From a bacterium (GTDB lineage Bacteria; Patescibacteriota; WWE3; 2-01-FULL-39-13; JAACPI01): 64,000 nt of DNA. Under the pieces are notes generated by a model that saw only the letters and a list, made by a program, of their open reading frames with translations, was not told the origin of the DNA and did not search any database. The stretch is from NCBI GenBank assembly GCA_009995545.1, contig JAACPI010000003.1, positions 5,781-69,780 of the forward strand, read 5' to 3'. Both the position numbers and the translations under genes were made by a program. Shown here one piece after another: positions 19,761 to 38,105 of the stretch. The first letter of the stretch is position 1. Each line of letters begins with the position of its first letter.

Positions 19761-19770
19761 TACACAGATT

Positions 19771-19866
19771 AGACAAACAAATACTCCTTCACAAACACTT
19801 TCGTTCGAGTATCGTTCAATTGCCGACCCCCACCTTTAAAACCCTTTACCTAAGCCATTTATACCG
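19771..19866 (+). repeat. Composite repeat R1/copy 3: AAACAAACAAATACTCCTTCACAAACACTTT block, pseudo-tRNA 3' half, then the tRNA downstream flank
   Basis: Left half matches 22901-22945. Right half matches 17296-17330 and 18741-18776. About 50 nt downstream of it also resemble the sequence after copy 2. Confidence 0.65.
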
Positions 19867-19933
19867 ATTGTAAAACACCCTGATGGGACGTTACTCGAAC
19901 TCATAGGATTGGAAATCAAAAATCACCCAGGTT

Positions 19934-21247: not shown

Positions 21248-21600
21248 AAATCGTTTTCTTAATTACGTAGGGGTAAGTTTAAAAATACCCAAACGGAACA
21301 AAAAGCTAAAAAAGCTAAATTGATAATCCGTAAGGGCGTAGTAGAGTACTAACAGTACCTAATGTTACGCGGTGCCACCTCACTTTTTTCTAATGTTCTC
21401 ATTAGAAACTCTCACCTCAAACTAATAAGGTTTAACGCTGTAATGGGCGTTCCCATGGGGTTCTAATTTCGTAAAGATTTCTTCCCCAAGCTCATCGGTG
21501 TTTGCCGAATCATAGCTATATACGGTAATTATATACCTTTTGTCAAATTACTTCAAATAACCTCTCAAAGGATAGTAAACAAAAGAATGGAGCGAGAGAA
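21248..21600 (-). promoter_or_regulatory. Candidate T-box riboswitch leader of aspS
   Basis: The minus strand at 21383-21365 reads GTGAGGTGGCACCGCGTAA. This matches the T-box core AGGGUGGNACCGCG with N=C, which would pair a G73 discriminator. It lies ~120 nt upstream of the aspS ATG. A further 450-nt untranslated leader with raised GC follows. Confidence 0.4.
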
Positions 21601-21689
21601 CAGAACTGAAAAATACTGTTAAGACACAAATTAAGTAAAAATCATGTTAGCGTACTGTACAAAAAAGATACACCTTAACAAAAGCTTTA

Positions 21690-21760
21690 GTTCGAACAAC
21701 GTCCCATTGCCGACCCCATCATCCTATAGTATTTACAAATAACTCCTATTTTGATATAAT
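21690..21760 (+). promoter_or_regulatory. Repeat R2: pseudo-tRNA-His 3' half (GTTCGAACAACGTCCCATTGCCGACCCCA), CCTATAGTA, then promoter TTTACA(21732-21737)-N17-TATAAT(21755-21760)
   Basis: Near-consensus sigma70-type spacing. Orientation fits the downstream + genes at 21816 and 22068. Confidence 0.6.
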
Positions 21761-21815
21761 TACCCTAATATAGCAATCCGGCTATAAATTGGATTAAGAG
21801 TTTCAGGAGGGAAAT

Positions 21816-21998
21816 ATGCCGAATAGAGGTTGGTCGAAGAAGCGCTTGTTAAGTGCAGGGGCATTTCTAGCCACTTTGCTGATCTTCGCGATCCAGGCTG
21901 TAGTGGCAAAAAATGGAAGCCCCGATGACGTCGTGCTGGTCTCGGCCTTAATGGTGATCGTAACAGCCTATCTGGTGATTTTTGTACCAGGGAAATAA
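21816..21998 (+). CDS. Small membrane protein (60 aa, two TM helices)
   Basis: Strong SD (GGAGGGAAAT-ATG). Local GC ~50%. Downstream of the R2 promoter. Confidence 0.4.
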   Translation: MPNRGWSKKRLLSAGAFLATLLIFAIQAVVAKNGSPDDVVLVSALMVIVTAYLVIFVPGK

Positions 21999-22067
21999 GG
22001 CCAAGGATAGGGAAAAGTGAAGGGTACCTTACGGAACCTATAGGCAAAGCCTGTAGCCCTTCGATGG

Positions 22068-22862
22068 TTGGATAATCTAGAAAGGAGGTTTATCCTTCAA
22101 AAAAGATTGTTCAACCATTTCCGTGTAGTAAAAATCTTTTTAAAAATGCTTAAAAATTACACAAAACCATACTTACAGGAAATTGCCCATAATGTAATTG
22201 ACGAAGAAAAAGAATCCCGTACCGGTTACCAGGATATAGAAGTACAAGATGGTGAGCTATTTGACCCTTCATATGCTGAGTGGGAAATAGCAGAAAGTTG
22301 GGAGAGGCATTTGAAAATTTCTTTATCCACAAGGTTAGAAGAGGACAATATTGAAAATATACAAAAAACAGGAAAATTCCTGGCCACTTTCTTTGTAACA
22401 TTAGAAGAATTAAGAAAAAAATACAATTTTGAGAAAGCTATACCAGTAGGTGTTGTCTATAAATATACGGAAAAACGCAACCAAAAATTTATTATATTAG
22501 CAGACGAGGAATCTGGGACAATACACATATCATTTTTTGACTTAAACAGGCTACTAACAAAACCTCCCACCAAAGTACAAGCAGAAGGAACAACTTACAG
22601 TGGTACTTTAGAAGACTTTGCAAAGTTGTGCGCCGCAGAAGAGTTTTACCATATTGCTCACCCAGAATACGAGCAAAATATACTAGGTAATGTAAGCGCT
22701 GGTGTAAATTTGGTAGACTATGATGCACAAGAGGCTGAGTTTAACGCACTCCTTTTTCAACTCCACAATGCAATAGAATGGGATATGCCAGAACATACAG
22801 TAGAAAATATACGACAAAGGATTAATAGAGCTAAAAAAATTAGAGACAATCGGATTAAATAA
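22068..22862 (+). CDS. Hypothetical protein, paralog of 27172-27903. The ORF-track start is TTG, so the true start is uncertain.
   Basis: Shares FLATFFVTLEELRKKYNF...ILADEESGTIHISFF and VDYDAQEAEF...LLFQLHNAIEW blocks with the 27172 ORF. Confidence 0.45.
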   Translation: MDNLERRFILQKRLFNHFRVVKIFLKMLKNYTKPYLQEIAHNVIDEEKESRTGYQDIEVQDGELFDPSYAEWEIAESWERHLKISLSTRLEEDNIENIQKTGKFLATFFVTLEELRKKYNFEKAIPVGVVYKYTEKRNQKFIILADEESGTIHISFFDLNRLLTKPPTKVQAEGTTYSGTLEDFAKLCAAEEFYHIAHPEYEQNILGNVSAGVNLVDYDAQEAEFNALLFQLHNAIEWDMPEHTVENIRQRINRAKKIRDNRIK

Positions 22863-22885
22863 CCTCTTTTACAGATTTATGGGAC

Positions 22886-23004
22886 ATTAAATCCCCCACT
22901 CTAAACAAACAAATACTCCTTCACAAACACTTTGGTTCTAGTATCGTCCCATTGCCGACCCCATTATCCCATAGTATTTACAGGTATACCCTTTTATCGT
23001 ATAA
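22886..23004 (+). promoter_or_regulatory. Repeat R3, the full composite: ATTAAATCCCCCACT, AAACAAACAAATACTCCTTCACAAACACTTT, pseudo-tRNA 3' half, then TTTACA(22976-22981)-N17-TATAAT(22999-23004)
   Basis: Same architecture as R2, R4 and R5. Left parts recur at 19771-19812 and 29731-29765. Confidence 0.6.
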
Positions 23005-23060
23005 TTATTGTGTAACTGAATTTCGAGTTACATAGTCGTTTTAGCACGAGGAGAGAAGAA

Positions 23061-23435
23061 ATGAAAAGGTTAAACCTGATGTTTTTTTTCCTAGTCTTGG
23101 CAAGCCTCCTATTACAAGGCTGTGCCAGCTTCGGCAATACGAAGGTGAAAGATGCAGTCGTTAGGGACTGGATATTTTCAGTCGAAACACGAGTAAACGG
23201 GGTGACTACCGTTTGGCTCAGGAACGATGACACCGGGGTCTACTGCTTCACTAATGATATCGCTACTGCGAAGCAGCTAGAAGACCTCATGAAGTCGGAT
23301 CGAATGGTCACATTCCGGTACGGTGATGTAAAGTTTTTCAATAACAATCCGTGCTCTGGAGCAGAAGTAAGTGTCGATGGGAGTGGTTTCCACACCTTTG
23401 TTGTCACCCAAATCGTAGGGGACTTAAAGGAGTAA
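23061..23435 (+). CDS. Small lipoprotein (lipobox LLLQGC)
   Basis: MKRLNLMFFFLVLASLLLQGCASF. Higher GC than the host. SD GGAGAG. Confidence 0.5.
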   Translation: MKRLNLMFFFLVLASLLLQGCASFGNTKVKDAVVRDWIFSVETRVNGVTTVWLRNDDTGVYCFTNDIATAKQLEDLMKSDRMVTFRYGDVKFFNNNPCSGAEVSVDGSGFHTFVVTQIVGDLKE

Positions 23436-23565
23436 CTTAGATGAGCGGTAAGGACCGGCGGAAGATCCAACATGGATCGCCACGGAATATCTGACAAAAG
23501 TCAGACGCACATATAACATCCTTACAGTAGTACAATTTTTAGAACACTACCCTCTCCCTAACGAA

Positions 23566-24180
23566 TTAAAAGTTCGGTATTTTAATAATAATTCCCTCTT
23601 CAAGTAAAGAATCAGAATCTATATCCAGTAAATTTATTTTACTTAGTTTTTCTGCGTAGCTGGTTGAACCAAAAAATAACGTTGAAAGATTATTTAGGTT
23701 TTTAGGAGTATTTTTATTATTTACTTTATATGTAAAAACTTCAGAGTGCTGTTTTATGTCTTTCTCAAAAATTGGGTTAAAAACCATATCTTTTAACGAG
23801 GACTTGGAGATATCTCTAACTTCAAAATGTAAGTGAGGCTCTAAACAAGCCTCTCCTGTATCACCAGAGAACCCTATAACATCTCCAGTTTTAACTATTT
23901 GAGCGAGATTAACTGAAAAGACGCTTAGATGGGCATAAAGAGCTACTATATTACCATTTCTAATTGAAACAGTATTACCCATACCTTTATGAAATTCTTT
24001 TCTTACGACAATACCCCTGAAAGAGTTTAGTATTTTAGTTCCAACTGGAATATCAAAATCTAACCCAGGATGTTTATTACTGAAAATTTCGTAAAACTTC
24101 CCCTTATCGGAGTCCCCAGTAAAGTCTTTGCCAAAAGTGACAGATATTTTACCCTGTTCCAGAAGTTTTTGTAACTTCAT
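23566..24180 (-). CDS. M23-family metallopeptidase (lysostaphin/LytM-like)
   Basis: HxxxD and HxH blocks (GLDFDIP..., GDTGEACLEPHLHFEV). Confidence 0.7.
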   Translation of the reverse strand: MKLQKLLEQGKISVTFGKDFTGDSDKGKFYEIFSNKHPGLDFDIPVGTKILNSFRGIVVRKEFHKGMGNTVSIRNGNIVALYAHLSVFSVNLAQIVKTGDVIGFSGDTGEACLEPHLHFEVRDISKSSLKDMVFNPIFEKDIKQHSEVFTYKVNNKNTPKNLNNLSTLFFGSTSYAEKLSKINLLDIDSDSLLEEGIIIKIPNF

Positions 24181-24216
24181 ATGCTTATTTTAACACCAGA
24201 GGAGTGTAACAGGCTA

Positions 24217-24296
24217 AACAAACATTTTCGTTCGAATATCACTCCATTAACGTCCCACCCTATAGTATTTACACCGAACCTCATTTGACATATAAT
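24217..24296 (+). promoter_or_regulatory. Repeat R4: TTCGTTCGAATATC...CGTCCCACCCTATAGTA, then TTTACA(24268-24273)-N17-TATAAT(24291-24296)
   Basis: Same promoter module. Faces the + gene at 24387. Confidence 0.55.
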
Positions 24297-24386
24297 ATAT
24301 GTATTTAGTGGCAATTCGATGCACTAATCAGAACATTCAAAACCTGTTACTTAATAATTGATTTTCTAGCATATAGGAGAAGAGAG

Positions 24387-25619
24387 ATGTCAGATCGAAG
24401 ACTTGGCGCATGGGACTGTGAGTATTGTAGTCGCACCAAAATCTGGGGAAATGTATATACATGTCCAGGATGTGGTAACCCAAGGAGCAAGGGAGTGAGG
24501 TTCTACCTACCCTCTGATGCCCCTTTGGTGACACCGGAGATTGCAGAACAATTGGGGTCCGGAGATCCTAACTGGTATTGCGAACATTGTAATTCCGGAA
24601 ACACAGACACCAGAGATATTTGCTGGAACTGTGGAGCTCCGAAGGGATCTTCTCCCGTACATGAAACAAAAAATTTCATGGAAGGACAGACCCCCCGAAG
24701 TACTGCACAGGCTCGAGCAGCAGATCCAGATGGACGGTCTTGGGTGGCAAAAAGTGATAGAAACGGCCGAACCACTACAACTTCACCTTCAAGAGAACCT
24801 AATAAGCCTGAGCAATATAGTTGGGCTTCTCTAGTGAGTTCTCCGAAGACGTTCACTAATCAGGCTAAATCCATAATAAGCTCGGGGAAAAATCCAGCTT
24901 ACTTAGGGGCAGCTCTAGGGGTTTTGGGAGCAATTCTGATAGCATTTCTAAGCTACAACCTGTTCTTTAAACCCCACGAGGAAACTGCTATAGTTAGCTC
25001 GTTCCAGTGGGAACAGAGCGTGGTTTTACAGCAGTTTTCCACCGTTCGCGAAACAGCATGGACAAGTACACCCTCAGGGGCGTACAACATCCAATCTGAC
25101 TACAGGGATACTGGCCGCGATCTAAAAGTCCACGACGGATGGGAGACAGTCAGTTACTCGGACACTTGTTACCGTAGCGAAAGCTACACCGACACGTGCA
25201 CCAGGTCTGTCTACAACTCCCGGACGTGTACAGGGAATCGCGACAATGGAGACGGATCCTTCAGCAGTTATACCTATGACTGCGGGAGCAGCGGTACGGA
25301 GACATACTCGTGTAGTAAAACGAGAAGTGTCCCATATAGCTGCACCAAGACCCGTCAAGAAGAGTTGTACCATTATGAGGACATATGGGACAACTGGCAC
25401 GAGTTCGACATTGATAAGTGGACCCATGTGACAACGTATCCCACACGGGGTAATAATCACAGACCCCACTTTCAAGAGGTAAATCTCCAAAACCCCTACT
25501 TGGGTGGGAACCCGATACTTGGTCAGCAGAAGCTGATTCAGATCCCGGGAAGCTATTCCATAACCTTTGCGTGCGAAAACAAAAAATCACTCGGCTCGTT
25601 CTTAAACCAAAATTTTTAA
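24387..25619 (+). CDS. Membrane protein with two N-terminal cytoplasmic CxxC...CxxC zinc ribbons, one TM helix, and a Ser/Thr/Tyr/Cys-rich extracytoplasmic domain
   Basis: CEYCSRTKIWGNVYTCPGCGNP and YCEHCNSGNTDTRDICWNCGAP. TM helix AYLGAALGVLGAILIAFLSY. GC ~48%. Several antisense ORFs are artefacts of that GC. Confidence 0.5.
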   Translation: MSDRRLGAWDCEYCSRTKIWGNVYTCPGCGNPRSKGVRFYLPSDAPLVTPEIAEQLGSGDPNWYCEHCNSGNTDTRDICWNCGAPKGSSPVHETKNFMEGQTPRSTAQARAADPDGRSWVAKSDRNGRTTTTSPSREPNKPEQYSWASLVSSPKTFTNQAKSIISSGKNPAYLGAALGVLGAILIAFLSYNLFFKPHEETAIVSSFQWEQSVVLQQFSTVRETAWTSTPSGAYNIQSDYRDTGRDLKVHDGWETVSYSDTCYRSESYTDTCTRSVYNSRTCTGNRDNGDGSFSSYTYDCGSSGTETYSCSKTRSVPYSCTKTRQEELYHYEDIWDNWHEFDIDKWTHVTTYPTRGNNHRPHFQEVNLQNPYLGGNPILGQQKLIQIPGSYSITFACENKKSLGSFLNQNF

Positions 25620-25683
25620 ACAAACAAACTCTAACAAATACTTTTAAATAGTAAATTTCTGAAGTATTTTAAATACATGAACC

Positions 25684-25998
25684 TTGGTGATTTTATTTCC
25701 TTTGCAAGTCTGGGGGGGGGGCGAAATTGGTTTTGATGGTTTAACGGTATCAACAAATTTTGGAGAAATAATGTTATACTCCGGGTATGCCCACAGTGAT
25801 AAATGCAACAGGGTTTTTTGTAATTTCGCAGACACAAACGAGCAGATAGAGTGTGTCTACAACACTAGCGGGGAATTACTAATTTTTAAAAAAGACGACA
25901 AAGTATTATTTCAATTAGAGACAGGTATAGAAACTGATCCGGCAATCGAACTCAGAAGTAGCAATAATTGGTCTCTCGGGGCTTATTGGACCAGGTAA
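25684..25998 (+). CDS. Possible small protein (104 aa) whose 5' end contains the G10 tract. The start may instead be the internal Met, after the tract.
   Basis: ORF has protein-like composition. No homology recognised. Confidence 0.25.
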   Translation: MVILFPLQVWGGGEIGFDGLTVSTNFGEIMLYSGYAHSDKCNRVFCNFADTNEQIECVYNTSGELLIFKKDDKVLFQLETGIETDPAIELRSSNNWSLGAYWTR

Positions 25999-26006
25999 TT
26001 ATAGGC

Positions 26007-27065
26007 CTATCTGGCATATATTGAATTAAACTCTTGAATCAGAGAAATATTTGAAAGGTAGTTTTTATACATGTCCACGTAGGTATCTTCATAAATAAGA
26101 TCGCGGTTTCCATAGCCAAATGTTTGATCAACTTTGTATTTCCCGTCTCCCATAGAATCGTACTGATACTCATATGCAGGGGTGCCAAAACTTCCTAGGT
26201 CAACCCATCTTTTTCTAATTCCTAGTACGGTAACTTCGCTGTCATTGTCAATGCCACCTACCCAGGTACGTTTATCAGAATCAGTTAAAAATAAATAAGA
26301 ATATTTACTATTAACTGATTTAAAAACTCTTGCTGTAGTTTTTCCATAAATGGCGGCTTCAAACTGCCATGTTAATGTTAAATTTTTAAAGTTGGGTTTA
26401 TCACTTTGCTCTATATAAATATCTTCGGGTGGAAGTAATTCTTCTTTTTTAGACGAGTACATCTTGCCTATTATTTTTAAGGGCTCCTCAACTATAAGTT
26501 CTGTATATGTTTTATCTGTGGCACTTTCCATAGCGGTACCATAGAACACTTCAATTCCTGAGATTTTATCTTCAATTTTAAGGGTGGTTTTAATTTGCGT
26601 TGAAATAAAATACTGAAGCTCTAGAGGAAGCATTATACTCCACTCACTATAACCTTTGTCATTCCACTTAGGCTGTTCATTACCTTCCTCATCCACTCTA
26701 TATTTATAAGCTCTAAGCAAACGATACAAACCTTGAGATTTGCTTTGGAAAAAAGAAGATACTAAATACCTTCCCTTATAATCTTTAATGTAAGCAATTA
26801 ATCTTGGAACTTCGTTGTTTGCAATTTTAAATTTGTCGGATAAATAAATCTTTCTATCCCCTACTGTTACCTGGTATTTAGGAAAAAGTTTGTGATTAAT
26901 TAAATCTTGTGCAGTAAGATCTTTACCATTAAAGGGGCGGGCGTGAAAATAAGACTTTTCTAAAGCATCTTTAAACATTACTACATTATATAACAGGAAA
27001 TAATAAATACCTTTAGTAGACATCTGATTAGAGTCCCCCCCCCCTTCTACTAAGACAGACCTCAT
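26007..27065 (-). CDS. Hypothetical protein with a G9 tract (on the minus strand) in codons 8-10 (GGG). Alternative start MSTKG lies downstream of the tract.
   Basis: 352-aa ORF. C9 at 27036-27044 on the plus strand. Confidence 0.4.
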   Translation of the reverse strand: MRSVLVEGGGDSNQMSTKGIYYFLLYNVVMFKDALEKSYFHARPFNGKDLTAQDLINHKLFPKYQVTVGDRKIYLSDKFKIANNEVPRLIAYIKDYKGRYLVSSFFQSKSQGLYRLLRAYKYRVDEEGNEQPKWNDKGYSEWSIMLPLELQYFISTQIKTTLKIEDKISGIEVFYGTAMESATDKTYTELIVEEPLKIIGKMYSSKKEELLPPEDIYIEQSDKPNFKNLTLTWQFEAAIYGKTTARVFKSVNSKYSYLFLTDSDKRTWVGGIDNDSEVTVLGIRKRWVDLGSFGTPAYEYQYDSMGDGKYKVDQTFGYGNRDLIYEDTYVDMYKNYLSNISLIQEFNSIYAR

Positions 27066-27070
27066 AGACC

Positions 27071-27115
27071 CTATAACCCTATAGTATTTACAAGTAACCT
27101 ATTCTAGGGTATATT
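27071..27115 (+). promoter_or_regulatory. Repeat R5: CCCTATAACCCTATAGTA, then TTTACA(27087-27092)-N17-TATATT(27110-27115)
   Basis: Same promoter module. Faces 27172. Confidence 0.55.
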
Positions 27116-27171
27116 TATTGTAACTAAAATCCGAATTATAAATCCTTGGTATCAATAAACTTTTAAAAATA

Positions 27172-27903
27172 ATGAATCCGCAAATACCAAAAGAAGAACC
27201 TACCGTTTCCGAGGCACAAATTCCAGATAGCGGCTTTGAGATGGAAATAACAGATAGGGATCTTATCAACGTGTCAGACCCTAGCTGGAAAGACACCCAA
27301 ATGTGGGTGAATCAACTTAGTATGTCTATGGAATCTCGCAATTTGGAATACTCAGAAGACGAAATTCTAGTTGCGGCAAGATACTTAGCTACATTTTCGC
27401 AGACACTAGAGGAACTAAGGGGGAGGTTTAACTATCCAAATGTAATACCTATAAACATTGTTTATAGGTACCAGGAGAAAAACAACCGAGCCTTTATGAT
27501 CCTTGCGGATTCAAAATCAAGAACAGTACATATCTCCATCATTGCTTTGATGAAGTTTTTTAGAGGATTGTCTAGTATAGAAGAAGATTTTTTTTACTAC
27601 AAACTGGGAGACACAATAGCATTTAATGGCACTTTAATGAATTTTGCGAGGCTTAATGCAGTCGAAGAATTCGACCACGTGACGAATTCTGCAGGCAGAT
27701 CAAATAGCCTTTGGTTGGTTAATGAGGATAACCCAATAGTCGAATATGATGCGCAAGATGTTGAGCACAGCGGGCTGTTATTACAGCTACAGTTAGCTGT
27801 TGAGTGGAAAATGCCCTGGACAACTATAAACCCACTGGGCGACAGGTTACACAACGCTATAGAGTTAAGAAGAAGTAGAAGGAGTAGTACTGTTAAAAAA
27901 TAA
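27172..27903 (+). CDS. Hypothetical protein, paralog of 22068-22862
   Basis: Aligned blocks YLATFSQTLEELRGRFNY...ILADSKSRTVHISII and VEYDAQDVEH...LLLQLQLAVEW. Confidence 0.45.
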   Translation: MNPQIPKEEPTVSEAQIPDSGFEMEITDRDLINVSDPSWKDTQMWVNQLSMSMESRNLEYSEDEILVAARYLATFSQTLEELRGRFNYPNVIPINIVYRYQEKNNRAFMILADSKSRTVHISIIALMKFFRGLSSIEEDFFYYKLGDTIAFNGTLMNFARLNAVEEFDHVTNSAGRSNSLWLVNEDNPIVEYDAQDVEHSGLLLQLQLAVEWKMPWTTINPLGDRLHNAIELRRSRRSSTVKK

Positions 27904-27941
27904 GTATCTAACTATAATCAATATATACCCTCAATAAATCA

Positions 27942-28832
27942 GTGGGTTGTAATTTTGCTATAAAAACACTGCTAATGGATGAAGTAAGAACAATTTCCCC
28001 AGATATTGTTGGATATACTATATCAGAGGCAGGCATACTACCCCCCAAAGTTGAAACCTCAATAAGAGAAAGTATAGGTGAAACCGTGGACACCCTTTTA
28101 AGTGAATTTAAGGGATCTACTCCAAGAACTCTGGCCACTCGAGAAGAATTAATAAAGGGTATAGATCAAAGGCTGGTTTTTGTCGATGAAGAAGACATTC
28201 CAACCATAGCATCGGCTTTTTTCGATACTAATCCAGACGATAATAAAGCTAGCGCTTTTTTTAAAATCGACGGAGAAGGCCCTATTGCAGTAGGAGTACC
28301 CTCTAAAGAGAAAGCACAAAAAATATATAATAACCTAGATGATGAAAGTAAAAAACAAGTTAATACATTTATTTTAGGTTCAAATTTTTCAAGGGTGGAG
28401 GGAGTGAGATATTTAATTTTGGCCCAGAATTTAACTCACGAACTAGTCCATGTTTTACAAAATTTTAAAGAAGTTAATGTAAACAAACCAGAGGAACTGG
28501 CTTTTGTTGAAACTGCAGTAAGATACTATACAATGCGGATTTTTGAAAAAAATAACATACCGTATATAACAAACAAAGTCGACCTAACAGCATTTAAAGA
28601 ATACAGTTCAATTCTACGAGAGTTTGATGAACAGACTCTAAAAGATATTTTATTGGGTAATAAACCAAAAATTAGTCATAGTACAAGCTTTTTTAGCCCC
28701 GGTGCAGAAAGATTTGCAAATTACACCCGTGTAAAAATTAGGTTACTATCCAGTTTTGTTCCTAACAGAATTAAATACATTTTTGATAATGGTCTTAACC
28801 CCAATCTGACAACCCAGATACCCAACTTTTAA
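27942..28832 (+). CDS. Hypothetical protein with an HExxH (HELVH) zincin-like motif, a putative metallopeptidase
   Basis: NLTHELVHVLQ at ~aa 175. No other support. Confidence 0.35.
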   Translation: MGCNFAIKTLLMDEVRTISPDIVGYTISEAGILPPKVETSIRESIGETVDTLLSEFKGSTPRTLATREELIKGIDQRLVFVDEEDIPTIASAFFDTNPDDNKASAFFKIDGEGPIAVGVPSKEKAQKIYNNLDDESKKQVNTFILGSNFSRVEGVRYLILAQNLTHELVHVLQNFKEVNVNKPEELAFVETAVRYYTMRIFEKNNIPYITNKVDLTAFKEYSSILREFDEQTLKDILLGNKPKISHSTSFFSPGAERFANYTRVKIRLLSSFVPNRIKYIFDNGLNPNLTTQIPNF

Positions 28833-28859
28833 AACTACCCAACCAATACGAAAAATAAA

Positions 28860-29720
28860 CTAAGATAAATCTAAACTTAACTTACCTAAAACTCCACGTA
28901 CAGAAGATTTAGCCTCGAACAATTCTTTAAGTTCCTCTAGCATAAATGTTTTGTTTTTTGCTCCGCCCTGCTTGATTAAAAAATTATAGGTGTAGTAATA
29001 AAGTAGCTGAAAAATTATCTCTTTAGTATACTCTTGACTATAATTATCGTTTAAAATTTTAAAGTAGTATTTATTTAAATCTAAGTATTTATTATTAAAA
29101 TTTTCAGAGGTTATAAAGCCTCCTAAAATACTAAATCTTAATAGGGGCTCAAAAATTAAACTTTTACTGCTTTTATTAAACTTGAAATTATTTATAACCT
29201 CCGCATCAAAAAATAAGATACTAATCCTTAAAGGTAACCTGCCATTAGCCGGTAACTCCTTTACAAAATTCTCTATCAACAACACAACTCTTAGATAATT
29301 CTGGGTACTTAAAATTACTTCGATATCTATGTCACTAAGTTTTTCTCTATCAGACTGATATAACTGTGCCTCCGTAGCTGAAATTAATTTTTTGCAGTCA
29401 AACGGTGAATTATTTAAATTACTACAGAATGACCCTACTACCCTTGCACAGTCAACACAGTCTTCTATCAACAAAAAAAGTTTTTCTAATAATACCAATG
29501 CGGCATTGTTTGTATCGCTGTATACAGAATTATCTAAATTAGAAAATATTGTAGGAAGTAAAATCTTATCATTTCTAAAGAATAAGAGGTTATCAAAACC
29601 TCTAGGAAAATACTCTATTAGTGGAGTCCTATTTATAAAATCTGTTATTCTTTCTTCTATATTTTGGTATTCTGTATTTTTAGCCATAACAAATAAGTAG
29701 AGTAATTCATTTTCATACAT
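28860..29720 (-). CDS. Hypothetical protein
   Basis: 286-aa ORF. Confidence 0.35.
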   Translation of the reverse strand: MYENELLYLFVMAKNTEYQNIEERITDFINRTPLIEYFPRGFDNLLFFRNDKILLPTIFSNLDNSVYSDTNNAALVLLEKLFLLIEDCVDCARVVGSFCSNLNNSPFDCKKLISATEAQLYQSDREKLSDIDIEVILSTQNYLRVVLLIENFVKELPANGRLPLRISILFFDAEVINNFKFNKSSKSLIFEPLLRFSILGGFITSENFNNKYLDLNKYYFKILNDNYSQEYTKEIIFQLLYYYTYNFLIKQGGAKNKTFMLEELKELFEAKSSVRGVLGKLSLDLS

Positions 29721-29752
29721 TAAAAATCGCGATTAAATCCCCCACTTTAGCG

Positions 29753-30145
29753 TTAAACAAAATAAAGAGAATAAGTATAAACTTCAGAATAAACCTGACT
29801 TTCCTGAAAACAAAATTCATATCCTACGGATTCCAAAGTTTTAATAAATCTTTGTGCATCTGGTGTTGTGGGCTGAAATTCTAGCAACAACGGACCCTCT
29901 TCTCTTACGTAGAATTCAATTTGCTCAATTAAATGTTCAAACAACCTAGTACCGTTTGAAGGGGCATAAATAAAGGATAATTCTGCAATATAGCCTTGAA
30001 GTGAGGGGTCTAGAGGCTTCCAGAACTCAACGTTATAGTAAAAGCCGGTTTCTTCTTCAGAATATTTTAATTGTTCAGGTAATGACTTCATTAAAAAAAT
30101 ATAACACACTGCAACCTTTAGATGGTTACACAAATCATAAACCAA
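29753..30145 (-). CDS. Hypothetical small protein
   Basis: 130-aa ORF. A left-part repeat motif (ATTAAATCCCCCACT...AAACAAA) sits in the 32-nt gap before it. Confidence 0.35.
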   Translation of the reverse strand: MVYDLCNHLKVAVCYIFLMKSLPEQLKYSEEETGFYYNVEFWKPLDPSLQGYIAELSFIYAPSNGTRLFEHLIEQIEFYVREEGPLLLEFQPTTPDAQRFIKTLESVGYEFCFQESQVYSEVYTYSLYFV

Positions 30146-30204
30146 TAGCCTGCACCTCCCTACCTCCAGTAAGGATCAAATGAAGAGTATGCTATGATCT
30201 TAAT

Positions 30205-31020
30205 ATGGGTATAAACCTAGAAAATGACATAGATAAAGTTTTAAAAGACATTAAAATCTTTGTTTTTGATAATATTCTTACACAATTCCCCTTTTTAAAG
30301 AAAGACTCTTCAATAGTAGTATCGGGTTCTGTAGCAACAGAATGTTACGATAAAGATTCAGATATTGATATTCATGTAATTAGATCAGAAAATTTAGATA
30401 CGATATTATTAAACAGATTAAAAGATTACAAAAAAATTTTACGGGAATCTGGATCAAATATAGAACTACGATTTGCTAGTACATATGAAAAACTAGAAGA
30501 CAATTTAGGATGGAATACTGATTATATCTTAGGCGAAATAAATAACTACCTAATAATCTTTGATTATAATAACCGACTCACAGAACTAGTAAGTAAATTT
30601 AACTGGTACCCCAGCGAGATATATGAAGAAAAAATAAAGTGGTTACTTTCCGAAATGCTTATAATAATACAAAGAGAAATAAACTCTGCCACAATTAGAA
30701 ACCAGGGCTATTATCTAAGGGTGTTGAAAGTAAAATATGTAAAGTACGCACTAACTATACTTAGATTACTAAATAAAAAATATCCCGTTTATGACAAAAA
30801 ATCATATGAAACTACTCTAAAGTTACCTACCGTAAGCAAGGATCTTAAACTAGCTATAAATGAAATTTTAAGTAGCAAGGATAAAGACAAAATACCAAAT
30901 GTTATGCTAAAGGTGCACTTAAATTTAGTTAATTTAGTTGAATCTGAAACACATTTTAAGAGCTTGAAAAAAGAAGATTTACTTAATTTCAGTACCAAAA
31001 ACAAAATTCGGTTTGAGTAG
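30205..31020 (+). CDS. Nucleotidyltransferase-fold protein (Pol-beta superfamily, G[S]x9-13 DhD motif)
   Basis: VVSGSVATECYDKDSDIDIHVI plus a C-terminal helical domain. 271 aa. Confidence 0.5.
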   Translation: MGINLENDIDKVLKDIKIFVFDNILTQFPFLKKDSSIVVSGSVATECYDKDSDIDIHVIRSENLDTILLNRLKDYKKILRESGSNIELRFASTYEKLEDNLGWNTDYILGEINNYLIIFDYNNRLTELVSKFNWYPSEIYEEKIKWLLSEMLIIIQREINSATIRNQGYYLRVLKVKYVKYALTILRLLNKKYPVYDKKSYETTLKLPTVSKDLKLAINEILSSKDKDKIPNVMLKVHLNLVNLVESETHFKSLKKEDLLNFSTKNKIRFE

Positions 31021-31095
31021 AGCTAACAAAGCGGAGAAGTATTTATACATACTGTGTGTGTGTTGGATGAGTATATGGTAAAATTAGCTTAGACT

Positions 31096-31815
31096 ATGGG
31101 TAAAATTCAAATTAAAATAAAGGAAACTGTCCTTATTTATCTTAAAAAACGACTCAAAAATATAGTTATTACCAAGTCCCTATCTAGATATATAGATACC
31201 TTGGATTTTATAAAAGAAGATAGAGTTGTACGAAGTAATTACTCGTTAGTTACTAAAGACCCAAAATTTAGCTACCAAACTCCCTTCTCAGAAATAAAAT
31301 TAATAAAACTATTAGTGGATCTTATAAAGGCTAAAAATATTCTCGAAATTGGAACCTTTAAAGGTTTTACTTCTGGTTATTTAGCCACTTCACCAAGTGT
31401 AAAAAAGGTTTTTACCTGTGAAATCGATGAAAGTAACATAAAACAAGCTCAAAAACTGTGGAATTCGCTAAAAGTAACCCATAAAATTACACCGCTCTTA
31501 GGTTTAGCTACAGAGAGTATGCAGGAGTTGATCCGTAGTAAAAAGTTTTTTGATCTTATATACATCGATGCAAACAAAAATCAGTATGATAGTTATTTTG
31601 ATTTGTCATTGCAGCTAATAGAAAACGAAGGACTTATATTAATTGATAATACTTTATGGGCGGGTTTGGTTGCGGAAAAAAATACATCCTTCTCCCACGC
31701 AAGACTAATTGACAAATTAAATAAAAAAATTGCTAAAAATAACAATTGTGAGTCAGTTATTATTCCAGCATGGGACGGCCTAACAATAGTCAAAATTAAT
31801 AAAAAAATTAAGTAG
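31096..31815 (+). CDS. Class I SAM-dependent O-methyltransferase (family 3, CCoAOMT/catechol-OMT-like)
   Basis: ILEIGTFKGFTSGYLA (SAM motif I) and IYIDANKNQY (the DADK-like block of PF01596). Confidence 0.65.
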   Translation: MGKIQIKIKETVLIYLKKRLKNIVITKSLSRYIDTLDFIKEDRVVRSNYSLVTKDPKFSYQTPFSEIKLIKLLVDLIKAKNILEIGTFKGFTSGYLATSPSVKKVFTCEIDESNIKQAQKLWNSLKVTHKITPLLGLATESMQELIRSKKFFDLIYIDANKNQYDSYFDLSLQLIENEGLILIDNTLWAGLVAEKNTSFSHARLIDKLNKKIAKNNNCESVIIPAWDGLTIVKINKKIK

Positions 31816-31820
31816 TACCT

Positions 31821-33071
31821 ATGGAATTTCCGTATACAGTAAAAAGCGATCTTGGACCCAAGGCACTTAGCTTTTGGAACAACATTCTATTGCCAACTAA
31901 GGGTTCAGCTGTGGATAAAACTATAGAGGAAAGTTTGTGGAGAAGAAATCAATCGGAGAGTAATAAAAAAATGTCGGGATGGACAAAGGAATCGGATAAA
32001 AGAAGAAAAATCGTCTACTATAAACACCAATATAATGTTATCCAGAAAAAATCTATTAAATACCCCGGTAGCCTAATCTTAGAATCTACATACATCTACG
32101 AGTGCTTTACACTACCAAGTAAAGAGATAATTAAATACAAAAAATCTTTAGTACTAAGTGCAAATACCGGAAAATGGAAAAAATCTAAAGAAGCTGAAAA
32201 CCAGTTAAGCTATATAAAGGGCGATTTGATACTAAACATAAATCACTTTATAAATCCCCAAGATAGAATGGAAGAGTATGGTGACTTTCCAGAAAATTAC
32301 CAAACCCTAGAGATCACCATTAAATCCAAAAATTTTGTGGAAGGTGCCGACCTTCAAGGCATAATTTGGAACGTAGCAAAATCTGGACTCAGGAGGGCAC
32401 TGCCAAGGAATAAACCAACTTATATTGAAAATGTAGATAGAATTATTAAACACCTACCCTGTCAAATAGAGTTAGGTTGCGGAGCCGCATTTGAAGCAGG
32501 GGTCCCACCTTTACACGAATTACACGATACATATTTTATAAATGAGCCCTTCACCAAAAAATTTATTATTACAGCTGAAAAAGATTTACTAATGAAGTAT
32601 TACATATTAAATACAGAAAAGGAATTTAAGTTATCCTCAAGATTTTATAGTAAGGTACTAACAGCTAAGTTGACTCCTTTTTATAAAATATTACAAAAAC
32701 TATACAAAAAAAATTATGTCGTCGGCCCTATAATTACAAATAATTTTGATGGTGTTCACCTAAGAATGGGGATCCCCGAATTATATATAAGAACATATAC
32801 TGAAAGTGAAGTTATGCCAAACATAGATTTTCATCCGGAAGCTAAATCTCTTCTGGTCGTAGGGTGCCACGCAGACAGAAGAAATATCGAAATGAAAGCC
32901 AGGGATAAAGGGCTAAAGGTGATTTACATTGATCCAGAAGGTTGGTGGGTTAAAGGTAATTTTATTGAGTATAAATTAGAATCTCCTCAACAAAAAGATT
33001 TAATATACAGTCGAGGTGCAAGTGATGCCTTTTTGGAAATAGGGCAAAAACTACTATCTAATAAAGAATAG
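31821..33071 (+). CDS. Protein with an unknown N-terminal domain (~200 aa) and a C-terminal SIR2-like (DHS-like NAD-binding) domain
   Basis: ELGCGAAFEAGVPPLHE resembles Sir2 GAGIS..GIPDFR. IITNNFDGVHLRMG resembles TQNIDGLHERAG. LLVVGCHAD resembles LLVIGTSL. The canonical HG catalytic His is not obvious. Starts 6 nt after the MTase stop. Confidence 0.4.
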   Translation: MEFPYTVKSDLGPKALSFWNNILLPTKGSAVDKTIEESLWRRNQSESNKKMSGWTKESDKRRKIVYYKHQYNVIQKKSIKYPGSLILESTYIYECFTLPSKEIIKYKKSLVLSANTGKWKKSKEAENQLSYIKGDLILNINHFINPQDRMEEYGDFPENYQTLEITIKSKNFVEGADLQGIIWNVAKSGLRRALPRNKPTYIENVDRIIKHLPCQIELGCGAAFEAGVPPLHELHDTYFINEPFTKKFIITAEKDLLMKYYILNTEKEFKLSSRFYSKVLTAKLTPFYKILQKLYKKNYVVGPIITNNFDGVHLRMGIPELYIRTYTESEVMPNIDFHPEAKSLLVVGCHADRRNIEMKARDKGLKVIYIDPEGWWVKGNFIEYKLESPQQKDLIYSRGASDAFLEIGQKLLSNKE

Positions 33072-33077
33072 GCCCTA

Positions 33078-34808
33078 CTACCCAAAAGTAAAAGCAAAAA
33101 CCTCTACGTTATTATCTTCAAATTCTAAAATTAGGGTTTCTTTTCCTGCATTTTTTAATTTTACTAGCTTGTATAAAGTATCTTTAGTAACTGTTACAAA
33201 ACCTCCAACAACATCTAAACCCAAATCATTTGGATTATTTTTTAGCAAAACTTTTACTTTAGAATTACCCTCTTTAGCCCTCATAACTAAAAAAACTTGC
33301 TGTGCATCAAAATTAAAGTATAACTTTGCACCAGCTTCAGGATTTGCAAACTCTTCATTAACAACCCAGTTACCTTCGTAGGCAAAACTATTACCCTTTA
33401 AATCTCTCGGTAAACTATAAGTTTCTAGCACGTCTTCTTTAATTGATTCATTAGAAGCAAAGCCTTTCAGCCTCCCATATCCTAAATATGTTTCTGGGGT
33501 CTTTGCGTAACTTTTCGGTGCTAATTCAGTTGAAATACTTTGCTCAACTTTAAGTAATTCTTGAATGGCTTTTTCTGTTTTATCGTAATCCCCTTCTCCA
33601 AAGTGGTAGTATCTTATATTACCCTCTTTATCAATTAGATATTTTGCAGGCCAATACCTATTGTTATAAGCCCGCCAAGTTGCAAAATCATTATCCTGCA
33701 TAACCGGATAGTTGATCCCAAAGTCTTCTAGTGCCTGTAACACATTTTTCGGATTTTTTTCAAATTCAAACTCGGGGGTGTGTACACCTATAATTACTAA
33801 ACCCTCCTTTTCGTATTTTTCCCACCAGGTTTTTAAGTAAGGTAGGGTTCTTTGACAGTTTATACAGGTATAAGTCCAAAAATCTATTAAAACAATTTTT
33901 CCCTTAAGCTGCGACATACTTAAAGGTTCAGAATTAAACCAAATTCCCCCCACTATAAGATCTGGTGCAAAAATTGGGTTTTTAACATTCAAAGGACTGT
34001 TATTAATTTTGGGTAAAGGAACATCAAATATAGAATTTGAGCTTTTTGTATTTTTATTAATATTTTGTAAGCTTTTATCAATTACAGAAGTATCCTCGAA
34101 TCTAGTAAGTCCTGCACCCCAATTTGGAAATGCAGATAACAAATAATTTTGAAATTTTCTATCAACACCAGTATAAATTCCGATCGCTAGTAGAATCATC
34201 AGTACTCCAAAAGCTTTTTGAATATTAACTAAATTCCTATTTAAAAGAGGTATTTTAGAAGTTACTTTAGACCCACCAAGCATAATCATTAACATAGGAA
34301 AAGCTGTACCTAAAGAATAGGAAAGGGTTATAAACAAGACAGAAGTATTAAAGACGCCAATTGCGGCTAAAGTTATTACAGACGCAAATATTGGACCCAC
34401 ACAAGGAGTCCAAAGCAGACCCAGAGAGATGCCAATTAAGAAACCACCACCAAACCCGGTTTTATCCTTAGAACTTAAGCCTTTACTTGAAAGTTTAGAA
34501 AAAAACTTTTCAGTCACTAACTGAAATTTTGGAATAACTAAGGAAAGTCCAAAACCAGCAATTATAAATACTGAGATTAACCTTAAGGTATCCGCTGAAA
34601 TGTTGGTAAGCCTGACTAGAGAAGATAAAAATAAAGTAAAAAAAGTAAAGCTTAAAATAAAACCTAATATAATCCCAAAAGGCTTCCTCTGACTAGATTT
34701 GTCACCCTCAACAGCTGATGAAAGGATAATAGGGAGTAACGGCAAGACGCAGGGAGAAAGTATTGTTACTAAACCAGCAATAAAAGAGTAAATTATAAGC
34801 AGAAACAT
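33078..34808 (-). CDS. Fused DsbD/CcdA-like membrane thiol-disulfide transporter plus a TlpA/ResA-like thioredoxin domain (CINC)
   Basis: N-terminal LSPCVLPLLP (CcdA motif). Multiple TM helices. WTYTCINCQRTLP thioredoxin CxxC. Confidence 0.65.
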   Translation of the reverse strand: MFLLIIYSFIAGLVTILSPCVLPLLPIILSSAVEGDKSSQRKPFGIILGFILSFTFFTLFLSSLVRLTNISADTLRLISVFIIAGFGLSLVIPKFQLVTEKFFSKLSSKGLSSKDKTGFGGGFLIGISLGLLWTPCVGPIFASVITLAAIGVFNTSVLFITLSYSLGTAFPMLMIMLGGSKVTSKIPLLNRNLVNIQKAFGVLMILLAIGIYTGVDRKFQNYLLSAFPNWGAGLTRFEDTSVIDKSLQNINKNTKSSNSIFDVPLPKINNSPLNVKNPIFAPDLIVGGIWFNSEPLSMSQLKGKIVLIDFWTYTCINCQRTLPYLKTWWEKYEKEGLVIIGVHTPEFEFEKNPKNVLQALEDFGINYPVMQDNDFATWRAYNNRYWPAKYLIDKEGNIRYYHFGEGDYDKTEKAIQELLKVEQSISTELAPKSYAKTPETYLGYGRLKGFASNESIKEDVLETYSLPRDLKGNSFAYEGNWVVNEEFANPEAGAKLYFNFDAQQVFLVMRAKEGNSKVKVLLKNNPNDLGLDVVGGFVTVTKDTLYKLVKLKNAGKETLILEFEDNNVEVFAFTFG

Positions 34809-34833: not shown

Positions 34834-35163
34834 TTAATTCCAATCAACGCCATCGTAATATCTAGTACCTCTATGACCTTTTTTGGTTACAGTATTTTTA
34901 ATTAATTCCCCGGGACAACCCACTATTATTAAAGTTCTGAGGCTTCCACTATCTGGATTTTTAGATCCCAGGATAAGCTTTACTATCTTTAATCTACCTC
35001 GCAACTTATCCTTAAAAATAGTATAAACGTAATCCCCTACTTTTAATTTAGAGGGCGTGCCTGCCATATGGAATTCAAACGTCTTTATTGTTCCGTTATA
35101 AAGCTGATTTAGAGCGCCATCTCCCTCACTGGCAGGTACTGTTTTAGTTATTCCAAAAAACAT
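34834..35163 (-). CDS. Hypothetical small protein
   Basis: 109-aa ORF. Confidence 0.3.
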   Translation of the reverse strand: MFFGITKTVPASEGDGALNQLYNGTIKTFEFHMAGTPSKLKVGDYVYTIFKDKLRGRLKIVKLILGSKNPDSGSLRTLIIVGCPGELIKNTVTKKGHRGTRYYDGVDWN

Positions 35164-36116: not shown

Positions 36117-36255
36117 AAGGAAGGCTTTTACAAGCTAAACAGTCGTCATCACCATCTAGTCGAATAATACCAAATCCGGCCCCACTACACTTTTCTAAAA
36201 CCTCTTGCGCATCTTCTTGATAAGTAAAGGCTGCACATGGGTTGTAAATGAACAT
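36106..36255 (-). CDS. Possible 49-aa Cys-containing small protein (MFIYNPCAAFTYQEDAQEVLEKCSGAGFGIIRLDGDDDCLACKSLPSKK)
   Basis: Hand translation. Its ATG overlaps the NUDIX stop as TAATG, suggesting translational coupling. Not in the ORF track because it is under 60 aa. Tail overlaps the trhO 3' end. Confidence 0.2.
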   Translation of the reverse strand: MFIYNPCAAFTYQEDAQEVLEKCSGAGFGIIRLDGDDDCLACKSLPSKK

Positions 36256-36788
36256 TAATTTTGAGGGTGTCGATGGAATATTAAGGGATAATTCTGTGAC
36301 TTATAATCAAAAGACGAAAGTATAATTTTTTTGATTAATTCAGATCGAACAGAGGGAACTTGCATATTTGCAACTTGTTTTTTCGTAAAACTTTTTATCT
36401 CTAATACCTCATCTTCTGTCATCATATCTCTATTCGGTTTGACTTTAGTATCAACCTTTCCAACGTAAATAAAACTATAATAGTCTTTAGATTTTTTTGT
36501 AAACTCAGTAATTGACAGTATTCCAGAAATTTTAGAGATTCTATACCCAGTTTCTTCTAAAAACTCTCTTTTAGCGGCATCTAAACTACCTTCATTTTTT
36601 TCAATACCCCCGCTTGGGATCTTCCAACGATTTAAAGTATCTTTTATTAGTAAAACTCTACCTAATTGATCCAAGGCAACAATACCGGCAACATTTCTTT
36701 GATATTTTCTATAGATTATTGACTTAATTTTGTAAAAAATGCGATTAAGAAATACCCGATTGATTGGGAGTAAAGACTTAGGCAGCAT
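36255..36788 (-). CDS. NUDIX hydrolase
   Basis: Nudix box GGIEKNEGSLDAAKREFLEETGY. Confidence 0.7.
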   Translation of the reverse strand: MLPKSLLPINRVFLNRIFYKIKSIIYRKYQRNVAGIVALDQLGRVLLIKDTLNRWKIPSGGIEKNEGSLDAAKREFLEETGYRISKISGILSITEFTKKSKDYYSFIYVGKVDTKVKPNRDMMTEDEVLEIKSFTKKQVANMQVPSVRSELIKKIILSSFDYKSQNYPLIFHRHPQN

Positions 36789-36797
36789 GGTTTAAAT

Positions 36798-38105
36798 TTA
36801 GGATTGTAAAAGAGATATAGTTTCTTCTAGATTTATAGTTTTTTGTTCACCTGATTCCATATTTTTAATCGTAACTAAACCACTTTTAATCTCGTCCTCA
36901 CCCAATATAACCACATAAGGGATTTTAGACTTATTAGCGTAGTCCAATTGTTTATTTAAAGATAAATTTTTACCTAAATAAACTTGGGAGTTTATATTTT
37001 CTTTTCTAAGCTTAGTTAAAATTTCCGCTGACAGAGAATTAAATTCTTCGGATAAGGCACAAACAAGTACCCTAGTAGAAACTGCAGATACTTCCGGTAA
37101 AGTACCTAGTTCCAAAAGAACCTCAAAAAGACGTGTTAGTCCTATAGACATGCCCACGCCAGGCAACCTTTGATTACTATAGTAGTTAACCAAGTCATCG
37201 TATCTACCACCGCTAGCAATACTTCCATAGTTTACAGCGATATCAATAAAAGTTTCGAAAACAGAGGAAGTATAGTAATCTAACCCCCTAACAACCGATA
37301 AATCTATTTCTAAATAATCAGGATCTATACCCATTGAGATTAATAAATTATAAAGACTTTGTAGCTCAGTAGCGCCTTCACTGCCTTCTAAAGAACATTC
37401 TTTTATAATTGACTCTATTTTCATAAAGTCACCTTTTAATGTAAAAGTATCTAATATTTTTAAGGACTTTTCTCTGTCTTTAACTAAAGTATTTAGTTGT
37501 TCTATAGCGGAGCTTTTTCCTATTTTTGACAGTTTATCTATTATTCTTAAAATTTCAGTAGACTGCTCCCCTACCTCTAAAAAACTAAGAATTTCCTTTA
37601 CCAACTTTCTATTATTTATACTAATTGTAAATTTAGGGATATTCAGGCTCTTTAAAGCAGAATAAACAGCAAAAACAGAATCAGCATCTGCAACAACACT
37701 AGTATTTCCTAAAATATCTACGTCACATTGGTAAAATTCCCTAGACCTACCTTTTTGTGCTTTTTCGGCTCGCCATACTTTTTGAATTTGATATCTCTTA
37801 AAGGGGAAAGTGAGCTGACTGTAGTTTTGAGATACATATCTAGCAAGAGGAACAGTCAAGTCATACCTAAGGGTTAGGTTATTCTTACCTTTTGTAAAAC
37901 TATAAACCTGTTTTTCAGTCTCACCACCACCCTTAGCCAGAAGCACTTCAGTAAGTTCTAGATTACTGGTTTCAAGTGGGATATAGCCCAAACTTTCGTA
38001 TGTACTAGAAATTTGACGTTTAAATTTTTCAAAAATAACCTGATGACTGGGAAGAAGTTCTTTAAAACCACTAGGAAGCCTAGGGATGACTTTTTTAATA
38101 CTCAT
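36798..38105 (-). CDS. hisS: Histidyl-tRNA synthetase
   Basis: Class II motifs, GGRYDDLV, HGG-like region, C-terminal anticodon-binding domain. Confidence 0.9.
   Translation of the reverse strand: MSIKKVIPRLPSGFKELLPSHQVIFEKFKRQISSTYESLGYIPLETSNLELTEVLLAKGGGETEKQVYSFTKGKNNLTLRYDLTVPLARYVSQNYSQLTFPFKRYQIQKVWRAEKAQKGRSREFYQCDVDILGNTSVVADADSVFAVYSALKSLNIPKFTISINNRKLVKEILSFLEVGEQSTEILRIIDKLSKIGKSSAIEQLNTLVKDREKSLKILDTFTLKGDFMKIESIIKECSLEGSEGATELQSLYNLLISMGIDPDYLEIDLSVVRGLDYYTSSVFETFIDIAVNYGSIASGGRYDDLVNYYSNQRLPGVGMSIGLTRLFEVLLELGTLPEVSAVSTRVLVCALSEEFNSLSAEILTKLRKENINSQVYLGKNLSLNKQLDYANKSKIPYVVILGEDEIKSGLVTIKNMESGEQKTINLEETISLLQS

Follow-up and report, generated by a model that had tools for sequence, protein, structure and literature searches.

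We analysed a 64,000-nt stretch of DNA from a bacterium of the WWE3 lineage of Patescibacteriota (GenBank assembly GCA_009995545.1, contig JAACPI010000003.1), here called the window, whose numbering is used throughout. It carries a conserved two-gene operon in which a gene for an O-methyltransferase (OMT) is followed by one for a SIR2-like protein (SIR2L). A nucleotidyltransferase (NTase) gene immediately upstream is a neighbour or unrelated cargo of a variable segment, and the conserved unit does not have three genes. As judged from motifs, profiles and a structural model, the C-terminal domain of SIR2L is a divergent sirtuin fold that keeps an NAD loop and an NNFD motif, from which NAD binding is predicted, and lacks the general-base His and the zinc module. 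We are highly confident of these structural and genomic statements on SIR2L and its loci; the enzymatic function proposed below is tentative. The relevant features are as follows.

27015–31078, no strand: variable segment of ~4.06 kb without a counterpart in the close relative L167 (blastn)
30205–31020, + strand: NTase open reading frame (ORF), 271 aa, Pol-beta-type with a DUF4037 C-terminal domain in a KNTase-like two-domain layout (Pfam)
31076–31084, + strand: candidate promoter of the OMT-SIR2L operon, an extended −10-like element, TGGTAAAAT (weak, by consensus only)
31096–31815, + strand: OMT ORF, 239 aa, first gene of the pair, a cation-dependent class I S-adenosylmethionine (SAM) O-methyltransferase (Methyltransf_3)
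31821–33071, + strand: SIR2L ORF, 416 aa
31821–32405, + strand: SIR2L N-terminal alpha/beta domain, aa 1 to ~195, family-specific
32406–33071, + strand: SIR2L C-terminal sirtuin-fold domain, aa ~196 to 416 (AlphaFold model, Foldseek, profiles)
32475–32501, + strand: SIR2L predicted NAD loop GCGAAFEAG, aa 219–227
32739–32750, + strand: SIR2L NNFD motif, aa 307–310
32790–32792, + strand: SIR2L invariant R324, beside the His-equivalent position 325 (Thr in the window)
32868–32882, + strand: SIR2L HADRR motif, aa 350–354

A preliminary description of this DNA, made from the sequence alone, had presented the three + strand genes as one NTase-OMT-SIR2L module. The three ORFs were found at exactly the coordinates it gave, with the motifs it quoted: GCGAAFEAGVPPLHE, ITNNFDGVHLRMG and LLVVGCHAD in SIR2L, and GS-x10-DID in the NTase. 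The gap between the NTase and OMT genes was 75 nt, as described, but that between OMT and SIR2L was 5 nt (TAG-tacct-ATG) and not 6 nt. The 3′ end of SIR2L was 6 nt from the stop codon of a convergent DsbD-thioredoxin gene. As read from the sequence, the −10-like element sits 11 nt 5′ of the OMT start; the equivalent place in L167 is occupied by TGCTACAAT, and homology between the window and L167 restarts by this element, at window position 31079. A generic promoter and terminator scan gave no enrichment over shuffled sequences.

Pairing of OMT with SIR2L was conserved. A Methyltransf_3 OMT gene lay directly 5′ of SIR2L in all eight closest-clade genomes having upstream sequence (the window, L001, L081, L082, L167/168, L169, L170 and L174), in the same order and on the same strand, with the two genes overlapping at one extreme and a few tens of nt apart at the other. 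The gene 5′ of OMT varied among these relatives, being SmpB, small ORFs of unknown function, or a UDP-glucose dehydrogenase (UGDH)-like gene with an epimerase gene. In a neighbour-joining tree of 147 SIR2L proteins, the seven full-length OMT-linked members formed an exclusive clade. The preliminary description had not recognised the OMT combination as one already described; the OMT-SIR2L pairing proved real, and our literature search found no description of the SIR2L family.

The NTase gene behaved differently. L167, which is 74–79% identical to the window in nucleotide sequence, aligned by blastn in two blocks, L167 1–760 with window 26254–27014 and L167 884–2975 with window 31079–33180; it keeps OMT, SIR2L and the flanking synteny, without the NTase. 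The intervening window segment, with a D2 repeat copy (27067–27121) at its left edge, contained five ORFs, namely 27172–27903 (+), 27942–28832 (+), 28860–29720 (−), 29753–30145 (−) and the NTase gene, and the other four had no Pfam, PHROG or PADLOC match. By tblastn this NTase was beside SIR2L in none of ~160 other SIR2L-encoding loci. The NTase relatives P0116 and P0117 were solitary, beside DDE/Y1 transposase or integrase genes. The NTase was excluded from the unit because no genome other than that of the window had it near SIR2L and because it lay in an indel absent from L167, so the three-gene module did not survive the co-occurrence check.

The family assignment of the NTase in the preliminary description, a Pol-beta-superfamily enzyme, was borne out. 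Both domains scored over their Pfam cut-offs (NTP_transf_2, 4.2e-7, 30.7 bits against 21; DUF4037, 2.6e-5, 25.3 bits against 22.1), and the active-site motif SGS-x10-DID fits the pattern hG[GS]-x9-13-Dh[DE]h, as in KNTase-like enzymes with the NTP_transf_2 and DUF4037 domains; the KNTase_C match was weak (0.029). Assignment as the MntA component of a type VII toxin-antitoxin system with HEPN was rejected (NCBIfam MntA NF047752, 15.8 bits against a cut-off of 60; no HEPN among the neighbours). A second NTase gene, 18915–19760 (+), was bracketed by D3 repeat copies and matched NTP_transf_2 (2e-8) and streptomycin adenylyltransferase PF04439 (4e-5). The two window NTases have only the active-site motif in common and are not paralogs. 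A GNAT acetyltransferase gene, 16089–16727 (−), was located in the same repeat-bounded array.

A database search for SIR2L returned 106 homologs, nearly all full-length at ~400 aa. NCBI lists a protein identical to SIR2L as "hypothetical protein GW755_02270 [bacterium]" and calls a family member from Streptomyces a "Sir2 family NAD-dependent protein deacetylase". The window protein had no match in Pfam (E≤0.1), NCBIfam, PADLOC-DB (E≤0.1) or PHROGs, and a single-sequence PDB search returned only spurious deaminase-toxin fragments (E>0.04). In an alignment of 82 SIR2L homologs, on which the residue counts below are based, 28 members matched PF02146 on their own (E≤0.01; best 1.9e-8), and a profile of the family matched Sir2Tm (2e-4) and other sirtuins in the PDB over the NNFD region. 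The AlphaFold model of SIR2L (pLDDT 94, pTM 0.91) gave as its best Foldseek match Sir2Tm (2h2i, E=1e-5, probability 1.0), followed by SIRT2 and, more weakly, DSR2 (E~1e-2); neither deoxyhypusine synthase nor any other DHS-like family was among the top 50. Fold and profile searches thus agreed with the SIR2-like character first ascribed to the C-terminal half.

Alignment to E. coli CobB with hhalign placed GCGxSxEAGIPP of the family on GAGISAESGI and TNNFD on TQNID, so that the family loop GCGxS (G219-C-G221-x-S223) aligned with GAGIS of CobB. N307, N308 and D310 were invariant (82/82) and aligned with QNID of both Sir2Tm and CobB. In CobB the catalytic His of the HG motif is at +15, counted from the motif Asp, and a Gly is at +7; we take the Asp-His spacing of Sir2Tm to be the same. 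The SIR2L family likewise has a Gly at +7 (G317), which supports the register, and position 325 (+15) was Arg in 43, Lys in 15, Thr in 14 and Gln in six members, with other residues in the remainder and His in none of the 82. The adjacent R324 was invariant in all 82. The linker between beta3 and beta4 was 18 aa in 61/82 members and free of Cys in 73/82, compared with ~60 aa carrying a Cys4 module in CobB, and on this basis SIR2L was considered to have no zinc module. Other invariant residues were H235, H350, D352, R353, R354, R361, E387 and D393. The canonical sirtuins (Sir2Tm and CobB; PF02146) are the best fold and profile matches, with an aligned GxGxS loop and N-x-D motif, but SIR2L differs from them in lacking the HG His and the Cys4 zinc ribbon and in having an extra N-terminal domain of 195 aa.

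This N-terminal domain was conserved in full length in the 82 homologs, with W40, R41, R42, Q44, Y91, P157, W183, G189 and R191 invariant. When 1.84 billion representative sequences were searched with a profile, 154 matched, essentially all of them either ~400-aa proteins of this architecture or fragments of such proteins. No PDB sequence match was found, and Foldseek of the domain model (pLDDT 90.5) against the PDB gave a best E of 0.02 with TM-scores of at most 0.30. Echoes of class-II aminoacyl-tRNA synthetase/LplA-like and START/lipocalin folds were non-significant, and no fold was assigned. The domain is thus as novel as the preliminary description had suggested, being found only in this architecture. 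We propose that it is an acceptor-binding domain.

OMT matched Methyltransf_3 (PF01596) over nearly the full profile (2.1e-38, 132 bits against a cut-off of 22), in agreement with the family-3 SAM O-methyltransferase first described. Its closest solved structures were of the catechol/CCoAOMT type (3TR6, 5LHM and 3CBG, 1e-29 to 4e-27), whereas TrmR (5ZW3) matched less well (8e-16). The motifs LE[IV]GT, IDA[ND]K and IDN (LEIGT, IDANK and IDN among the SIR2L-paired orthologs) were invariant across nine aligned OMT orthologs; from knowledge of the CCoAOMT family we take them to bind SAM and, through Asp/Asp/Asn, the metal. OMT thus resembles the SafC-like 5LHM, SynOMT 3CBG and Coxiella 3TR6 enzymes over its full length, including the SAM and metal motifs, but the SIR2L-paired enzymes form a group of their own with 42–71% identity (L167, 71%; 42–47% without L167). 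A relative with 41% identity, P0111, was not paired with SIR2L. A TrhO gene lies 3.4 kb from the pair in the window; assignment of OMT as TrmR, the tRNA ho5U methyltransferase, was rejected, as the catechol-type enzymes were much closer and OMT was co-inherited with SIR2L and not with TrhO.

The partners of SIR2L in other genomes were counted at 166 loci, a few of them redundant contigs, by tblastn with representative queries and analysis of adjacent same-strand ORFs. Methyltransferase genes were within 6 kb at 60 loci and directly adjacent on the same strand at 56. Nine of these adjacent genes were Methyltransf_3; at the 47 others a different class I methyltransferase occupied the slot of OMT, mainly Methyltransf_23 located upstream, in Myxococcota and Acidobacteriota. 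Genes of the UDP-glucose/GDP-mannose-dehydrogenase (UGDH) family were found at 50 loci, 47 of them adjacent, in Streptomyces, Larkinella and one Moraniibacteria genome. GT4 glycosyltransferase genes were within 6 kb at 27 loci (19 adjacent on the same strand), and a gene for a ~255-aa protein, c13, at 14, at 13 of which it was directly downstream on the same strand. The c13 profile matched Nudix hydrolases, the longest match being NUDT22, a UDP-glucose pyrophosphatase, over 170 aa. One metagenomic protein (P0142, 654 aa) is a natural fusion of SIR2L to a c13/NUDT22-like Nudix domain. Aldo-keto reductase, aminotransferase IV, HAD, IMPase-like and APH-like genes occurred at fewer SIR2L loci. Partner type followed the SIR2L phylogeny.

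An extended arrangement was present in Streptomyces (GCA_003248355.1; L166, 9001–18694), where ten co-directional genes were in the order SIR2L, Aminotran_4, HAD, GT4, an unknown protein of 366 aa, Inositol_P (IMPase-like), Methyltransf_23, APH-like kinase, NUDIX and MFS. This operon has the appearance of an uncharacterised cluster of biosynthetic genes. The order in L174 was epimerase, UGDH-like, OMT and SIR2L. Several of the L166 genes were also present at Nocardia and Pseudonocardiaceae loci (L018, L023 and L074). In L050 (1948–6600) and other Streptomyces, ORFs resembling a MobA/VirD2-type relaxase and an XRE-type helix-turn-helix (HTH) protein were seen by eye 5′ of a SIR2L-UGDH pair, with a conserved 148-aa protein without a Pfam match; these loci may lie in a mobile-element context.

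The reading that we favour, with confidence a little short of even, is that SIR2L is an NAD+-using ADP-ribosyl transferase of small-molecule or glycan metabolism and that OMT decorates its acceptor or product. Taken by itself, ADP-ribosyl transfer to a small molecule by SIR2L has at best about an even chance of being correct. The transferase assignment was made because class M sirtuins, which likewise lack the His and keep the Asn and Asp, are ADP-ribosyltransferases. In SirTM the His is replaced by Gln, Asn118 and Asp120 are kept, and the protein has ADP-ribosyltransferase but no deacylase activity (PMC4518038); the sirtuin Asn and Asp contact the nicotinamide ribose and carboxamide (PMC4518038). 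SIR2L would displace nicotinamide from NAD+ and pass ADP-ribose to an acceptor held by the N-terminal domain, a small molecule or sugar-type metabolite being a likelier acceptor than a protein lysine. The proposed role of the metal-dependent OMT is methylation of a hydroxyl group, perhaps one of a vicinal diol, in either the acceptor or the product. In other lineages the adjacent or fused NUDT22-like Nudix protein would cleave the ADP-ribosyl pyrophosphate, and phosphatases, GT4, UGDH-family dehydrogenases and methyltransferases would tailor the product before export; in the Patescibacteria-type lineage the methylation step alone would be linked. By such a mechanism the OMT-SIR2L pair would be neither a defence NADase nor a protein deacylase.

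Likeness to the class M sirtuins is at the superfamily level. SirTM and SIR2L have in common the sirtuin Rossmann fold, the Asn and Asp of a QNID-type motif and replacement of the catalytic His, by Gln in SirTM and by Arg, Lys, Thr or Gln (the last in 6/82) in the SIR2L family; SirTM has a conserved Arg that contributes close to the ribose site, and the SIR2L family has the invariant R324. ADP-ribosyl transfer has been shown for SirTM and is predicted for SIR2L. SirTM alone has a zinc-coordinating small domain, a GVGx[NT]TP motif, linkage to a macrodomain, GcvH-L and LplA2, and a protein target (PMC4518038), whereas SIR2L has no zinc module, VVGxHADRR at the corresponding strand end, its own N-terminal domain and, as linked genes, those for methyltransferases and for Nudix, UGDH and GT4 proteins. 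No macrodomain was found among the Pfam-labelled neighbours of SIR2L, although no systematic macrodomain search was made.

Several observations weigh against an ADP-ribosyl transferase. The invariant HADRR and R324 could mean a chemistry other than ADP-ribosyl transfer. At sixteen loci, mostly from Patescibacteria, where both flanks extended for at least 2 kb, none of the partner genes was present, so SIR2L can act alone; partners also differ among clades, and the substrate may therefore differ too. The window protein itself is under every Pfam SIR2 threshold. Finally, the position of the missing His was set by a gapless sequence register and not by structural superposition, because the profile alignments to sirtuins stop at residue ~320.

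The preliminary description had placed the locus among anti-phage defence and toxin systems. On this view infection would prompt SIR2L to act as an effector NADase and exhaust NAD+, and the NTase, the OMT or both would serve as sensor or modifier. SIR2 domains are frequent defence effectors, and DSR2 was among the weaker Foldseek matches; the OMT-SIR2L pair adjoins a repeat-bounded variable array, some partner GT4 proteins have a match to PF20706 ("GT4-conflict") as well, much weaker than those to generic GT1 models, and the Streptomyces copies are near the relaxase-like and HTH genes seen by eye. The SIR2 superfamily fold is common to SIR2L and the defence NADases (ThsA, DSR1/2, SIR2-HerA and SPARSA), some of which also have no canonical zinc module. 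However, these enzymes need both an Asn and a His; the ThsA substitutions N112A and H152A each abolish activity (PMC7272460), and SIR2L has the Asn but not the His. Defence NADases are fused or adjacent to a sensor or partner such as SLOG, HerA or pAgo, whereas SIR2L matched no PADLOC or PHROG model and had no TIR, HerA, pAgo, STAND or other sensor adjacent to it; in the window it is surrounded by OMT, the NTase, unknown ORFs and DsbD-thioredoxin. Conservation of the pair does not extend to the NTase, and the recurrent partners elsewhere are biosynthetic-type enzymes (methyltransferases, UGDH-family, GT4, Nudix, aminotransferase and phosphatases) with an MFS exporter. A defence role is thus improbable, and the framing as a defence or toxin NADase was not upheld. 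An ordinary NAD+-dependent protein deacylase beside unrelated genes, as the NCBI name of the Streptomyces member implies, would fit the PF02146 matches and the sirtuins as top folds, but it is disfavoured because the His and the zinc module are missing. The additional conserved 195-aa domain and the example of SirTM, a sirtuin without the His and without deacylase activity (PMC4518038), also speak against it, and we regard it as very improbable indeed; the NCBI name is probably wrong for the SIR2L family.

Loss of the catalytic His and zinc module would also fit a SIR2L that binds a dinucleotide or a nucleoside diphosphate (NDP)-sugar without cleaving NAD+, either with NAD as cofactor for a redox or transfer reaction, in the manner of deoxyhypusine synthase from the same DHS-like superfamily, or with an NDP-sugar or ADP-ribose as substrate or regulator. 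The invariant Arg residues (R191, R324, R353, R354 and R361) suit a polyphosphate ligand, and tight adjacency to UGDH-family, epimerase, GT4 and NUDT22-like Nudix genes agrees with such a role. But the invariant NNFD corresponds to the sirtuin Asn and Asp and is hard to explain without nicotinamide chemistry, and the top folds were sirtuins rather than DHS-like families; we consider a non-cleaving binder plausible, though unlikely. It is also conceivable, at a low probability similar to that given to defence, that the three window genes are independent xenobiotic- or antibiotic-modifying enzymes gathered in a variable part of the genome of an epibiont, the NTase acting by adenylylation, OMT by methylation and SIR2L by ADP-ribosylation, as Arr does on rifamycins. 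The KNTase-like layout of the NTase (with its weak KNTase_C match), the streptomycin adenylyltransferase match of the second NTase, the GNAT gene in the same array and the variability of the region among relatives are in line with this. However, OMT and SIR2L are coupled by a 5-nt spacer and co-inherited in distant genomes, which favours a single pathway over a set of unconnected enzymes; in other genomes SIR2L is the first gene of biosynthetic-type operons that include an exporter, and neither SIR2L nor OMT matched a resistance-family profile in Pfam or NCBIfam.

An extended form of the ADP-ribosyl transferase proposal, which we put forward as doubtful, is that SIR2L represents a new class of sirtuin-fold enzymes, without zinc or the catalytic His and with an N-terminal acceptor domain of their own, for which NAD+ is a building block in the ADP-ribosylation of a small molecule or sugar. 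This step might start a pathway of Nudix cleavage, dephosphorylation, methylation, glycosylation and export to an NAD-derived metabolite or surface glycoconjugate, of which the OMT-SIR2L pair of Patescibacteria would be a minimal two-enzyme form. Sirtuin-fold proteins are so far understood to be protein deacylases, protein ADP-ribosyltransferases or defence NADases, and SIR2L belongs with none of them. Its family spans several phyla but is rare, with about 150 clusters at 50% identity among the 1.84 billion representatives; the members have lost the catalytic His and zinc module and acquired a domain of their own, and they co-evolve with methyltransferases and with Nudix, UGDH-family and GT4 enzymes. 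If NAD+ were indeed a substrate for small-molecule ribosylation, this would be new enzymology among the very few pathways with NAD as a building block, and a handle on a product of Streptomyces, Myxococcota, Acidobacteriota and the genome-reduced Patescibacteria. A SIR2-like annotation should not automatically be read as defence.

A gene-cassette array, with cassettes separated by related intergenic repeats, extended over 17294–29749 of the window. The repeats were as follows.

17294 (overlapping the 3′ end of tRNA-His, 17222–17298), 18742 and 19829: D3 repeat, 61 nt
19775, 21662 and 22907: D1 repeat, 101 nt
21712, 22957, 24248 and 27067: D2 repeat, 55 nt, with a TTTACA-N17-TATAAT core
22886 and 29732: 18-nt repeat ATTAAATCCCCCACTYTA

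The last of these accounts for the remnant repeat motif noted earlier near 29731, since 29732–29749 matches 22886–22903. GC content ranged from 29% to 46% over 10–26 kb of the window. An integrase-bounded island at tRNA-His was considered and rejected; the adjoining ORF was Peptidase_S41, and no integrase was found in the cassette array.

On the other side of the pair were the following genes.

33078–34808, − strand: DsbD_TM-thioredoxin fusion gene, 3′ of SIR2L
34834–35163: ORF of 109 aa
35232–36116: TrhO-type UPF0176/rhodanese gene
36255–36788, − strand: small NUDIX gene
36798–38105, − strand: HisRS gene

The NUDIX gene at 36255–36788 is not of the c13 type, and c13 queries gave no match in the window. 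Short remnants of the DsbD fusion gene were detected in a close relative (L168, 1429–1750), where they were followed by a homolog of the 109-aa ORF.

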